Virus record (IMG/VR): IMGVR_UViG_3300031998_000008
Location: 128,001-192,000 of that record
Strand: one strand, 5' to 3'
DNA from: a virus
Taxonomy: Duplodnaviria; Caudoviricetes
Length of the DNA stretch: 64,000 bases
The notes below the pieces were generated by a model. The model did not search any database. It saw nothing but the letters and a program-made list of their open reading frames with translations, and was not told the origin of the DNA. Position 1 is the stretch's first letter. Each line of letters begins with the position of its first letter. Made by a program: the position numbers and the translations under genes. This document shows positions 39,076 through 51,404 of this stretch, piece after piece.

Positions 39076-39146
39076 GGTTCATTGGGCCATCGGTTGGCCA
39101 GGCGTCTCTAAAACGCTAAAGAAGGGTTCGACTCCCTTATGAGCCG
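39076..39146 (+). tRNA. Amber suppressor tRNA (anticodon CTA)
   Basis: Cloverleaf GGTTCAT/ATGAGCC; anticodon arm GGCGT-CTCTAAA-ACGCT; T loop TTCGACT. Confidence 0.85.
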
Positions 39147-39176
39147 CTACCAATAAGATTAAACAAATACTATGAA

Positions 39177-41784: not shown

Positions 41785-41799
41785 TGGCACGATATTTGA
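41785..41799 (+). promoter_or_regulatory. sigma54-type -24/-12 promoter
   Basis: TGGCACG-ATAT-TTGA. Confidence 0.7.
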
Positions 41800-41816
41800 T
41801 AAGTTTCATCACAAAT

Positions 41817-42962: not shown

Positions 42963-42977
42963 TGGCACGATTTTTGA
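42963..42977 (+). promoter_or_regulatory. sigma54-type -24/-12 promoter
   Basis: TGGCACG-ATTT-TTGA, followed by boxA. Confidence 0.7.
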
Positions 42978-43004
42978 TATAGTGCTTATGTTCTTTGAAA
43001 TTAT

Positions 43005-43901: not shown

Positions 43902-43916
43902 TGGCACGGTTTTTGA
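43902..43916 (+). promoter_or_regulatory. sigma54-type -24/-12 promoter
   Basis: TGGCACG-GTTT-TTGA, followed by boxA. Confidence 0.7.
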
Positions 43917-43944
43917 TAATGTGCAAACGTTCTTTGAAAAACAT

Positions 43945-45034: not shown

Positions 45035-45162
45035 GCTGGAATCGTCTAATGGATTAGGACACGTAGCAAACAAAATGATTTCAGTCGGAAATGAAATTTA
45101 ACAGCAGAATTTAGCAATGAAATTCCAATTCCGAAATGGGGGTTCGAATCCCTCTTCCAGCT
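45035..45162 (+). tRNA. tRNA(TCC, Gly anticodon) with ACAGCA mini-intron 45064-45118
   Basis: Spliced arm CGGAA-ATTCCAA-TTCCG. Confidence 0.75.
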
Positions 45163-45164
45163 CT

Positions 45165-45290
45165 TGCAAGTTGGTGTAGTGGCAGCACACGTAGCGACTA
45201 ATTAGATTTCAGACATGGAATTAGACAGCAATATTTAAAATGCGATGAAACCATAATTCCGTGACAGAGGTTCGATTCCTCTACTTGCAA
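45165..45290 (+). tRNA. tRNA(CAT) with ACAGCA mini-intron 45192-45246
   Basis: Spliced arm ACGGAA-ACCATAA-TTCCGT. Confidence 0.75.
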
Positions 45291-46633: not shown

Positions 46634-47269
46634 ATGAAGAAAGTATTTATTTTATTGATGGCAATTTCTTTGATGTTTTCATTCAATTCTTGCGATTGGT
46701 TTAACAAGAACAAGGATAATGAGAAAAAAGAAATTATCGTGGAAAACGTAGTTAAAGCAGACAGAGACTACATGACAGAAAATTATGGTAATACCTACGT
46801 ATGGTATGAAACACAAATTTCTTTGAATGACTATCTTGATGAAGAATGCGATGGCTCATTCTCAGAGATTGTAGATGTGTTCCAAGTTATCACTACAACT
46901 GACAGTGTAACATTTGATACCAAAGTAATTAAGATGTACCATGTTGCTGATTCTTCATACATTGAAGAAATTGAAGGTTTCTGGGTTGAAGACATGAATA
47001 TGAACGATGAAATCATTTCAGTCACTTACAAACAAGCATTCCAACTTATTAATGAAGTAAACTTCCCAAAACCACATTCAAAGAATTGTGTTTTGAGAAA
47101 AGAAGTTGGCCCAATTGAAGCTAATCCTCAGTATATCTTTGGCAACATTGAATCACAATTGTATGTTGATGCATTGACAGGTGATGTAACTGATGAAAGC
47201 CCAAGTTTCTGTGACGAAGTTATTGAAAACGACAGCATCGAAGATGTAAACACTCAATTTGGTGAGTAG
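46634..47269 (+). CDS. Putative lipoprotein
   Basis: Signal peptide ending FNSC; C-terminal YVDALTGDV (PepSY-like). Confidence 0.6.
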   Translation: MKKVFILLMAISLMFSFNSCDWFNKNKDNEKKEIIVENVVKADRDYMTENYGNTYVWYETQISLNDYLDEECDGSFSEIVDVFQVITTTDSVTFDTKVIKMYHVADSSYIEEIEGFWVEDMNMNDEIISVTYKQAFQLINEVNFPKPHSKNCVLRKEVGPIEANPQYIFGNIESQLYVDALTGDVTDESPSFCDEVIENDSIEDVNTQFGE

Positions 47270-47300: not shown

Positions 47301-47369
47301 AGAAAACCTAACAGCAACTTTTAGTAATAATCAGGACTTTCATTCCCGACAATAAACTAATGGTTTTCG
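47301..47369 (+). ncRNA. Split ACAGCA element enclosing an isolated anticodon stem-loop TTC (Glu)
   Basis: GAAAACC-TAACAGCAA...TCAGGA-CTTTCAT-TCCCGA...GGTTTTC-G. Confidence 0.7.
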
Positions 47370-47387
47370 TTTTTTAGAACCCATATA

Positions 47388-47459
47388 AGTAATCCTACAG
47401 CAACATTTCAACAAAACCTTTGATTGCAATTCAAAACCATGTTAACAAACGGATTACTG
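47388..47459 (+). ncRNA. Split ACAGCA element enclosing an isolated anticodon stem-loop GCA (Cys)
   Basis: AGTAATCC-TACAGCAA...TTTGA-TTGCAAT-TCAAA...GGATTACT-G. Confidence 0.7.
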
Positions 47460-47464
47460 TAAAT

Positions 47465-47536
47465 GCCTCCTTAGTATAACGGTTATTATATCGGCTTTGT
47501 AACCCGAAGATGGCAGTCCGATTCTGCCAGGGGGCT
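47465..47536 (+). tRNA. tRNA-Thr(TGT)
   Basis: TCGGC-TTTGTAA-CCCGA. Confidence 0.85.
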
Positions 47537-47658
47537 CAAAACATTCGAGGGATTGAGGCTTGGTTTCCTATTCTGACCTTTTGACGAATTGTGTTGGAAT
47601 ACGAATAAGGAGCAAGAGGCTTGCATGCACCTGGCTTGCTGTGTAGAGTGTTTTTAAT

Positions 47659-47742
47659 GGGAGCGTAACCGGTAATTGGTAGCCGCACGGACTGTAAATC
47701 CGTTCCCTTTTGGGACTGGTGGTTCGAGTCCACCCGCTCCCA
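47659..47742 (+). tRNA. tRNA-Tyr(GTA)
   Basis: ACGGA-CTGTAAA-TCCGT. Confidence 0.9.
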
Positions 47743-47834
47743 CAACAAGCACAAGTCTTTAGGCCCCCACACACATGGCAGCATAAGACTATATAAGTGG
47801 GAATACAAGCAAGAATTCTAAAGTGTTTGTTAAT

Positions 47835-47905
47835 GCGTTGTTAGTACAACGGCAGTATATTGGCTTCCCAAGCCGAAGATGTCAGTTCGATTCTGATACA
47901 GCGCT
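47835..47905 (+). tRNA. tRNA-Gly(CCC)
   Basis: TTGGC-TTCCCAA-GCCGA. Confidence 0.9.
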
Positions 47906-47913
47906 CATGTTTT

Positions 47914-47995
47914 CGGCTTGTGGTGGAACTGGTAGACACGCATGTCTTAGGAACATGTGCCGAAAGGCGTGTGGGTTCGACTCCCACCTTGCCGA
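47914..47995 (+). tRNA. tRNA-Leu(TAG)
   Basis: CATGT-CTTAGGA-ACATG. Confidence 0.9.
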
Positions 47996-48078
47996 CTGAA
48001 AATATATCAACGAAGCTTTGACTAATGAAGCCATGGATTTTACTGTGAGAAGTCCTATTGTGGACCGTTGATTTTTTA

Positions 48079-48112
48079 GATTATACTTTTTAGTTGATTA
48101 TACTTTTTAGTT
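48079..48112 (+). repeat. 17-nt tandem duplication GATTATACTTTTTAGTT x2
   Basis: Direct inspection. Confidence 0.8.
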
Positions 48113-48121
48113 GAAAATATA

Positions 48122-48213
48122 AGGAAACTTGCAGCAAATTTAATTAGGTTCAATAAATTTAACTTCCAATTAGATTTTAGATGGTTCGAGTCCATTACAA
48201 ACAAGGTTTCCTG
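48122..48213 (+). ncRNA. Split element enclosing an anticodon arm TCC (Gly) + T arm
   Basis: AGGAAACT-TGCAGCAA...ATTTAA-CTTCCAA-TTAGAT..GATGG-TTCGAGT-CCATT...GGTTTCCT-G. Confidence 0.7.
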
Positions 48214-48218
48214 AGTTT

Positions 48219-48292
48219 GGGAGAGTAGCGTAGCTGGTTAGCGCAACGGACTGTTAATCCGTGGGTCGTGGGTTCGATTCCCACCTCTCCCG
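48219..48292 (+). tRNA. tRNA-Asn(GTT)
   Basis: ACGGA-CTGTTAA-TCCGT. Confidence 0.92.
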
Positions 48293-48297
48293 CACAA

Positions 48298-48441
48298 AGT
48301 AAGCTTGCAGCAATAATTCAGTTTATTTTCGCAGATACCGAAGAGATGTCGGTTCGATTCCGGCCCCCCATACAAATTTAACTTTCTTATCATATGGGGG
48401 TAGTTTAATGGTAGAATATTACAAACAACAAAGGCTTACTG
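48298..48441 (+). tRNA. Circularly permuted tRNA (GAT, Ile anticodon) inside a split element
   Basis: 3' half (48326-48372) precedes 5' half (48394-48417); acceptor ATGGGGG/CCCCCAT. Confidence 0.72.
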
Positions 48442-48456
48442 TCAATACAAAGCAAA

Positions 48457-48550
48457 AGAAATCTTACAGCAAATATCAACTTGATTAGTTCGATTCTAAT
48501 ATTAGCCGCCATAAACAGGCTGATTGCAAAGGTGCAGTTAATGATTTCTG
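48457..48550 (+). ncRNA. Split element enclosing a permuted tRNA body lacking an anticodon arm
   Basis: T arm + ATTAGCC-GCCA, then GGCTGAT + D-like hairpin; flanks AGAAATC-TTACAGCAA / GATTTCT-G. Confidence 0.65.
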
Positions 48551-48638: not shown

Positions 48639-48648
48639 CAATAGATAA

Positions 48649-48779
48649 AGGAATTCAACAGCAACTTTTAATTTCGTTTGACTGTAAATCAAAAGGTTAT
48701 TGGTTCGAATCCAGTTGTTGCATTAGAGAAATCGAAGGCGACATAGCTCAATTGGTAGAGTAAGAAAAAGTGATTCCTG
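48649..48779 (+). tRNA. Circularly permuted tRNA-Tyr(GTA) inside a split element
   Basis: TTTGA-CTGTAAA-TCAAA..T arm..TGTTGC, then GGCGACA-TAGCTCAATTGGTAGAG. Confidence 0.78.
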
Positions 48780-48869: not shown

Positions 48870-48880
48870 CATAGATTGAA

Positions 48881-49036
48881 AGAAATTTAACAGCAAGAGA
48901 CTTTATGGTAAACACATTTCTCTGCAAAAGAAAGATTGTTGGTTCGAGTCCAACTGTAGCATTGAAGACGGAGCCCTCATTTAGCGAGGTGCGAGTTTTT
49001 GGCTGCATAGTGAAATTGGAAAAAGAATGATTTCTG
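48881..49036 (+). tRNA. Circularly permuted tRNA-Cys(GCA) inside a split element (break in D loop)
   Basis: TGGTAAACAC-A-TTTCT-CTGCAAA-AGAAA..T arm..TGTAGC, then GGCTGCA-TAGTGAAATTGG. Confidence 0.78.
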
Positions 49037-49240: not shown

Positions 49241-49592
49241 CGGATGTTGTTGATATTCAAAGAAAAGTCCGTAAGACGAGGGTTCGACTCCCTCCGGGTC
49301 CACCATATTGGGTGCGCCATGTTGAGTACCAACCATACTAGTTATACGGTTCTTATGATTCATGGTACAATACCAAGTAATTTGAAAAACTTGGTTCGGG
49401 TTTAAAATTGGGGTTCAACTCCCTGGCATCCAACAACTTTCAAACATGGGCCCGCTTGGATTTGATTGCGAATGAATACAATGGAAGGAGATATTCGAGA
49501 AGCCAATAAATGGCAATGAAAATTATGCATATGCAGTTGCAGCCTAAGCTAGGTTAGCAAATGCAGGTTGGCAGCGAACCAAATCGCTGCAA
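49241..49592 (+). ncRNA. ssrA: Permuted two-piece tmRNA: acceptor piece ~49241-49305, coding piece 49448-~49592, tag GNENYAYAVAA*
   Basis: GGGCCCG/CGGGTCC-ACCA with G3.U70; T arm GAGGG-TTCGACT-CCCTC; P2 pairing between the pieces; ATAAAT|GGC resume site, tag 49512-49547. Confidence 0.88.
49308..49433 (+). ncRNA. tRNA-like RNA occupying the tmRNA intervening segment
   Basis: TTGGGTGC/GCATCCAA, ACCAAGT/ACTTGGT arm, GGGG-TTCAACT-CCCT. Confidence 0.5.
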
Positions 49593-51331: not shown

Positions 51332-51336
51332 CAATA

Positions 51337-51404
51337 GGAAAACATACAGCAACTTTAATTCAGTTACAATCTTTTAAATTGTGGGACTAAAATTTCGTTT
51401 TCCG
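51337..51404 (+). ncRNA. Split ACAGCA element enclosing an isolated anticodon stem-loop TTT (Lys)
   Basis: GGAAAAC-ATACAGCAA...ACAAT-CTTTTAA-ATTGT...GTTTTCC-G. Confidence 0.72.

Follow-up and report, generated by a model that had tools for sequence, protein, structure and literature searches.

Clamp-closed elements in the tRNA island of a huge phage: candidate self-contained small RNAs carrying single tRNA parts

We analysed five small elements in the transfer RNA (tRNA) island of an uncultured huge phage (Duplodnaviria; Caudoviricetes; IMG/VR record IMGVR_UViG_3300031998_000008, 148 kb, 41% complete), all situated in one 64,000-nt stretch of DNA, referred to below as the window. A preliminary description had interpreted them as stand-alone anticodon cassettes plus an anticodon-less tRNA body, serving either as decoys or as interchangeable parts, and all five features were found again in our analysis. 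Each of them turned out to be self-closing: a 7-nt left strand, two nucleotides and the motif ACAGCAA (in general (A/G)CAGCAA) form the 5ʹ flank, and a complementary right strand followed by G forms the 3ʹ flank. We call these flanks the clamp (or handle) and the enclosed segment the payload. With about even confidence, we favour the reading that the five elements are complete, self-contained small-RNA genes of one family, none of which awaits a partner; they resemble tRNA mimics made for protein docking rather than parts for splicing together.

The terminal clamp

The terminal stem was composed of seven Watson-Crick pairs in 5/5 elements (69-95 nt in length; Table 1), with an A before the left strand and a G after the right one. 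This G was usually found within a CUG, and (A/G)CAGCAA was predicted to be single-stranded. The strict signature of the clamp occurred in eight units on the plus strand of the window and in none of the shuffled sequences, and five related loci contained 34 such units in 82 kb.

Table 1. Clamp units of the window and of a second tRNA cluster
Unit	Position (element)	Strand	Clamp (left / right)	Payload
U1	47301..47369 (47302-47368)	+	GAAAACC-ta-ACAGCAA / GGTTTTC-G	45 nt; weak hairpin, loop CTTTCAT at 47337
U2	47387..47459 (47388-47458)	+	AGTAATC-ct-ACAGCAA / GATTACT-G	49 nt; hairpin tttga-TTGCAAT-tcaaa, loop at 47424
U3	48121..48213 (48122-48212)	+	AGGAAAC-tt-GCAGCAA / GTTTCCT-G	approximately tRNA positions 9-63
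U4	48297..48441	+		complete tRNA shape, circularly permuted; anticodon GAT
U5 (body)	48456..48550 (48457-48549)	+	AGAAATC-tt-ACAGCAA / GATTTCT-G	T arm, acceptor stem and D-like hairpin (see text)
U6	48648..48779	+		complete tRNA shape, permuted; anticodon GTA (GAA in relatives)
U7	48880..49036	+		complete tRNA shape, permuted, with the opening in the D loop; anticodon GCA
U8	51336..51404 (51337-51403)	+	GGAAAAC-at-ACAGCAA / GTTTTCC-G	45 nt; hairpin acaat-CTTTTAA-attgt, loop at 51371
Extra unit	genome 105003-105071 (L015 1501-1569)			41 nt; non-anticodon hairpin
Extra unit	genome 105362-105560 (L015 ~1860-2060)			164 nt, GC-richer; matches no Rfam family

Across 10 small units the terminal stem was 100% paired, and four of its seven pairs varied on both sides. 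This covariation was equalled in 0/500 shuffles, and pairing dropped to 33-66% when the register was slid. In the 10 x 10 matrix of left and right strands, every unit paired with itself at 7/7 positions (seven Watson-Crick pairs in eight units, six plus one G-U pair in the remaining two), whereas most trans combinations were paired at only 2-5 positions out of seven; the sole real exception was the right strand of U7, which is the same as that of U5. A covariance model built only from small units (R1) recovered U3 (E = 0.003) and U5 (E = 0.006), as well as their orthologs.

To follow the clamp in relatives, we collected loci via an anchor gene, an open reading frame (ORF) of 211 aa at 46634-47269, directly upstream of the units. 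The anchor proteins of these loci showed 98%, 97%, 86%, 65%, 56%, 53% and 49% identity, and the related phage records reach up to 367-410 kb. The clamp module was restricted to one sub-clade (the window, L002-L005 and L009-L014), within which the units keep the same positions; the relatives with 53% and 49% anchor identity carried plain tRNAs only. Among 21 distinct alleles CAGCAA was invariant, always with A preceding the left strand and G following the right strand, and every partial unit had a perfect stem in all of its alleles, with compensatory changes. We inspected the linkers for a second helix and saw no register consistent across the units. The 14-nt word AACAGCAACTTTTA, searched in IMG/VR, gave matches with chance-level architecture only. 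None of the Rfam ribozyme families attained its gathering score across the window, and no hammerhead core was seen by eye at the unit ends.

Payloads and their fate in related phages

The stem of U1 covaries, as GAAAACC/GGTTTTC of the window is replaced by GAAAATC/GATTTTC in L004 and L002. Its payload is unrelated in L004, half of it is shared with L005, and L002 has only 18 nt in its place, with no hairpin, so that three unrelated payloads are found across the alleles and the hairpin is lost in the relatives. Since the clamp stays where the payload does not, the clamp is under selection in its own right; an intron without exons would give no reason for this. The U1 hairpin, which contains an internal A.C mismatch, is by itself not beyond chance, because about 10% of payload shuffles produced one. 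We also noticed TGAAAAC-g-ACAGCA inside the upstream ORF, at its 3ʹ end (window 47224-47237), a sequence that is also able to pair with the right strand of U1. In the relatives with 97-98% identity an AAC codon of this ORF is changed to AAT and both U1 strands change together; the two haplotypes represent one event.

For the shuffle test of the other two cassettes, a hairpin was taken as canonical when it had a 5-bp stem and a 7-nt loop with Y32, U33 and R37. Such hairpins arose in 0.4% of the shuffles of the U2 payload and in 2.3% of those of U8. The hairpin of U2 was found in three alleles, with the loops TTGCAAT, TTGTCGT and CTGTCAC; U33 and R37 were always present, and in the third allele (tttca-CTGTCAC-tgaaa) a stem pair was swapped from G-C to C-G. 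The loop of U8 is identical to the loops of the phage's own tRNA-Lys(UUU). A 29-nt block around this hairpin was identical in L004, L010, L013 and L002, with indels in the linker, and was unchanged at 86% anchor-protein identity. The units are separated from the adjoining plain tRNAs by gaps of 4-17 nt: the 3ʹ ends of U2 and U3 lie 6 nt ahead of tRNA-Thr and tRNA-Asn, respectively, and U8 of L004 ends 6 nt ahead of tRNA-Leu(aag).

The payload of U3 lacks an acceptor stem; it consists of the D-loop GG, an anticodon arm whose loop CTTCCAA lies at 48163, and a T arm. Units built in the same way carry the loop CTTGAAA in L004 and L010, CTTGAAA and CTGTAAA in L002, CTTGTAA in L009 and CTGTAAA in L005. 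Units of the U3 type thus display four canonical loop sequences (CTTCCAA, CTTGAAA, CTTGTAA and CTGTAAA), held at 56-98% identity of the neighbouring protein.

In U5 the order of parts is different: a T arm is followed by the 3ʹ strand of the acceptor, G-CCA, a 6-nt spacer, the 5ʹ strand of the acceptor and a small D-like hairpin with GG. The acceptor stem has 7 bp and the anticodon arm is absent. This unit was identical in the relatives with 97-98% identity (L004, L010 and L013). The U5 of L002 showed a compensatory change of C3-G70 to U3-A70; its T arm is identical, and both CCA and GG hairpin are retained. Altogether, four of the five payloads were conserved in relatives or exchanged for other canonical arms. 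ARAGORN called none of the tested partial units a tRNA. In the cloverleaf test with RF00005 (29 bits), U1, U2 and U5 gave no match, and U3 aligned at positions 9-63 with only 19.9 bits.

The same clamp was found around other payloads as well. Re-permuting U4, U6 and U7 yields valid tRNAs; U4 is then called tRNA-Ile, and the same unit in L010-L012 holds a Gly-TCC payload. The U6 payload (48649-48778) combines a short variable region typical of tRNA-Phe with a GTA (Tyr) anticodon, one base apart from the GAA (Phe) of the relatives. Moreover, the module is present intact inside six tRNA genes, and its deletion restores a valid tRNA. Two further clamp units, located beyond the window in a second tRNA cluster, have payloads that are not tRNA-like (Table 1). 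In seven of eight distinct cases, an anticodon found in a cassette or in a handle-bearing tRNA-shaped gene occurs also in a plain tRNA of the window; Gly-TCC is present in the window only in module-bearing form. Such redundancy suits mimics better than needed tRNAs.

At window 45077-45260 neighbouring module-bearing tRNAs share one helix, so that the 3ʹ half of the first tRNA and the 5ʹ half of the second are enclosed between the left strand of the first module and the right strand of the second. A deletion at pairs bracketed in this manner could readily give rise to permuted or partial units, and the origin of the units is most likely to be sought in handle-bearing tRNA-shaped genes, via deletion or recombination between handles at differing tRNA positions. 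In L009 the anchor protein is 65% identical, yet U1 and U2 are near-identical; the alleles therefore form a mosaic, in keeping with HNH and GIY-YIG genes that interrupt the tRNA arrays at scattered places.

The island itself extends over ~39-53 kb of the window and includes 34 tRNAs called by ARAGORN and a permuted transfer-messenger RNA (tmRNA). The latter is a two-piece molecule (49243-49547) with the tag GNENYAYAVAA, a G3:U70 pair and a score of 63.4 bits with RF04321; it is conserved in relatives, where the tag is ...YARVAA. Three plus-strand copies of the sequence TGGCACG-N-T-N-TTTGATA precede tRNA clusters (41785-41801, 42963-42979 and 43902-43918), as compared with 0.02 copies expected by chance, and the spacing is like that of a sigma-54-type -24/-12 promoter. 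We also noticed a tRNA with the anticodon CTA (39076-39147), labelled Pyl by ARAGORN; it is of the amber suppressor type and may be a sign that a stop codon is reassigned at a late stage of infection.

Splicing, decay and trans-assembly as alternatives

According to the first proposal of the preliminary description, splicing would release small circular anticodon stem-loops as decoys for host anticodon nucleases. The halves of the clamp would then be a split mini-intron, and an endonuclease with a ligase, or a ribozyme, would cut and join the payload borders. Under cis-splicing the cassettes would become tiny circular stem-loops, and U5 would give an anticodon-less tRNA-like RNA after RNase P cleavage and 3ʹ trimming. 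Splicing is a reasonable hypothesis, since valid tRNAs are obtained when the module is deleted from the six tRNA genes in which it is intact, or when the three permuted tRNAs, around which it is present in loop-opened form, are re-permuted. The Gly-TCC known in the window solely as a module-bearing gene, the possible birth of permuted units seen in neighbouring module-bearing tRNAs and the RtcB of a Bacteroides-type host, found in a control search, speak in the same direction. However, no conserved splice-site signal was found, the linkers between module and exon differ in length and sequence, and a bulge-helix-bulge (BHB) motif could not be drawn at the single junction inspected. A search of the 41%-complete record for EndA (tRNA_int_endo, PF01974), RtcB, Rnl1 and Rnl2 (RNA_ligase, RNA_lig_T4_1) gave no match; of the control genomes, only the archaeal ones had PF01974. 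Furthermore, a circle of 17-19 nt would be unable to retain a 5-bp stem, units with non-tRNA payloads exist, and the 18-nt payload of U1 in L002 leaves nothing to splice, while the covarying clamp is still kept there. We consider splicing unlikely on balance. For the release of circles we thus obtained no support, given the missing splice-site signal and the clamp kept in L002, whereas the other part of the proposal, a mimic or decoy made of a tRNA part, stays viable, as four of the five payloads were kept or replaced.

The units could also be non-functional left-overs of recombination and of homing-endonuclease gene conversion among module-bearing tRNA genes, now decaying, with an anticodon-likeness that is merely ancestral. 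The unconstrained payload of U1, the mosaic alleles (as in L009), the interruption of the arrays by HNH and GIY-YIG genes and the redundancy of all cassette anticodons are consistent with such an origin. Decay does not agree, however, with the perfect stems in the alleles of every partial unit, with the compensatory changes in the payloads of U2 and U5, with a U8 block conserved amid indels, or with canonical loops retained in U3-type units over the whole range of neighbour-protein identity given above. The preliminary description had regarded homologs without 7-nt anticodon-like loops as a sign of decaying remnants; we found such loops in the homologs of the elements at 47388, 51337 and 48122, and missed them only in those of the element at 47302. 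Taken together, we hold this explanation to be quite improbable.

The second proposal of the preliminary description was that the pieces are trans-spliced combinatorially, so that the U5 body and an anticodon cassette would be joined as RNA into full tRNAs with swappable anticodons. A precedent for it exists in the permuted and tri-split tRNA genes known from red algae and archaea: their pieces are joined through a BHB motif by EndA, with complementary leaders pairing between them (PMC3978253, PMC4033280, PMC3218864). As in our elements, the 3ʹ part may precede the 5ʹ part, the breakpoints vary and bodies can be shared among anticodon segments; here, by contrast, each piece has flanks complementary to one another, and the host is a bacterium. 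U5 lacks nothing except an anticodon arm, and its chimeras with the cassettes were called tRNA by ARAGORN in 2739 of 3888 junction variants (70%), in comparison to 53 of 1944 (2.7%) for control chimeras with shuffled stem-loops. A cloverleaf of body plus cassette is thus possible in geometrical terms, but these calls show only that the body is short of an anticodon arm. U5 has G73 and adjoins tRNA-Asp, and U2 has a GTC loop in two alleles, which would also suit a joined product. However, the pairing is in cis in every unit, at 7/7 positions, whereas U5 and cassette strands match at only 4-6 of 7 positions even with G-U pairs counted, and nothing besides strand pairing could fix an isolated stem-loop onto the U5 body. 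Units of the U1 and U3 types are present in L005, from which U5 is absent; any assembled product would duplicate a plain tRNA of the window; and U3-type units bring their own T arm, which suits no assembly scheme. Trans-assembly was therefore not supported, and we regard it as extremely improbable. The parts are interchangeable at the DNA level only, between alleles.

Relation to known RNAs and a possible role

Among known RNAs, the clamp is most readily compared with the Class I RNAs of dictyostelids, in which a short stem joins the ends, structure is conserved over sequence, and a conserved 11-nt motif stands beside the 5ʹ strand with a variable remainder (PMC7919456). These RNAs are 42-65 nt long, have a Dictyostelium upstream sequence element (DUSE) promoter and were reported from Dictyostelia only (Kjellin et al. 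2021, PMC7919456). The end-joining stem of the Class I model (RF01414) corresponds to the covarying 7-bp stem of our units. The motif beside the 5ʹ strand, CCUUACAGCAA in the model and CUUACAGCAA in U5, fits at 10/11 positions in U5, and the CUG(U) tail at the 3ʹ end, the variable remainder and a GC content of 30-35% are shared as well. U2 and U5 can be aligned with RF01414 from end to end (stem, CU(U)ACAGCAA, 3ʹ stem and CUG), and RF01414 was the sole Rfam family that spanned the whole of U5. In contrast, the phage units are 69-95 nt or more, lie in a tRNA array or operon and have tRNA parts as payloads. The known binder of Class I RNAs is the RRM protein Rnp1A, and no RRM match was obtained in the 41%-complete phage record. 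With Rfam scores far below the gathering score (see below) and differing lengths, the relation is one of resemblance, not of membership.

A second comparison concerns U5 and the YrlA RNAs (RF02553). If left unspliced, U5 has ends that pair at the place of the anticodon stem, T and D arms and a loop-closed acceptor stem, which is the topology of YrlA; the anticodon cassettes do not have it. Both kinds of RNA occur in phages, and in both a protein-binding motif, putative in U5, is located beside the 5ʹ end. In YrlA this is the Ro-binding motif GNCGAAN0-1G (Chen et al. 2014, PMC4201824), which a regular-expression search found in 0/8 units. RF02553 (gathering score 69 bits) did not match U5 and gave 24.8 bits for U4 and 23.1 bits for U6. 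YrlA RNAs are never isolated anticodon stem-loops, and no Ro60-like gene was found in the 148-kb, 41%-complete record. The likeness of U5 to Y RNAs is thus topological.

We looked for the handle next to Ro60-like genes in other phages as well. CAGCAA was enriched only ~2-fold within 1 kb of such a gene, and a loose 6-bp handle filter was uninformative (116 hits vs 86 in shuffles). A 565-aa protein of L006, the nearest Ro60-bearing relative, passes the Pfam TROVE profile; by tblastn it had no match in the phage genome. Ro60-bearing records of 364 kb, considered as relatives, were rejected, as they belong to another clade. Linkage between the handle and Ro60 was not reproduced. Some single cases, which are anecdotal, were noted in this survey. 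The Ro60-like (TROVE) genes of L144, L145 and L147 are embedded in tRNA islands of other huge phages. About 200 nt upstream of these genes, L145 (1887-1991) and L147 (7680-7784) have a bracket of stem plus TCAGCAA around a whole tRNA-Met, and L144 (7700-7830) has an element of T arm, acceptor and D arm similar to U5. In a 178-kb Ro60-bearing phage (L137, 324-382) a type III hammerhead matched with 39.4 bits (gathering score 48.5).

Several results weigh against the reading of the five elements as one family of self-contained RNAs. The scores with RF01414 were 15.6 bits for U2 and 18.6 bits for U5, compared with a gathering score of 41.5, and U1 and U8 gave no match. The z-scores of single-sequence folding (-0.1 to -2.2) were not beyond those of shuffles, and the module within the six tRNA genes would also fit an intron. 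In 53 Ro60-like neighbourhoods (712 kb) seven strict handles were found, a frequency similar to that of controls (1.2 per 100 kb), whereas shuffles gave ~2; R1 found nothing credible in these neighbourhoods or in four complete Ro60-bearing genomes, and L006 had no handles. With respect to a partner protein, the profiles TROVE, DUF2828, VWA_2, Ro60-family and RRM (RRM_1) were all unmatched in the 41%-complete record.

If the elements are indeed self-contained RNAs, we infer the following course. The units would be co-transcribed with the tightly packed tRNA array, and RNase P and the 3ʹ enzymes that process the adjoining tRNAs would release them. The released RNAs would fold as clamp plus payload, as supported by the covariation. 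A protein could then dock on the clamp, if Class I RNAs and Y RNAs are a guide; the clamp is the constant, selected part and probably the docking site. Finally, the payload would serve as a mimic, a tether or a decoy by offering one tRNA part to a factor that binds tRNA. The parts on offer would be an anticodon stem-loop (47388 and 51337; weak and unconserved in 47302), a core from the D loop to the T arm (48122), and an elbow of acceptor, T arm and D loop with CCA (48457).

The loops on display in these units are of the Lys(UUU), Asp(GUC), Tyr(GUA) and Glu(UUC) classes, which are targets of known anticodon nucleases. Phage tRNAs that counter such nucleases have been described (van den Berg et al. 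2023, PMC10264068); those are full tRNAs that can be charged and whose loops are altered. The two cases have a large tRNA island of a phage in common; in ours, isolated stem-loops would be presented on a handle. A more specific version of our reading would be that the handle RNAs show anticodon stem-loops of the Lys, Cys/Asp and Gly/Ser/Tyr types, together with the elbow, as protein-docked decoys or traps for anticodon nucleases or tRNA-modifying enzymes, and that the handle is the same as the amoebal Class I handle. We put this version forward only as a tentative idea of low probability.

If expressed, the elements would be, to our knowledge, the smallest modular tRNA mimics, with a constant handle onto which single tRNA parts were swapped in evolution. 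If the reading is true, they would provide a concrete candidate set of phage decoys or tethers for host tRNA-binding factors, and a phage RNA family would become tied to the amoebal Class I RNAs, which have no known function and had been regarded as unique to these amoebae. For annotators this implies caution, as the "broken", "intron-bearing" and "permuted" tRNAs of phages may then be a separate class of non-coding RNA.

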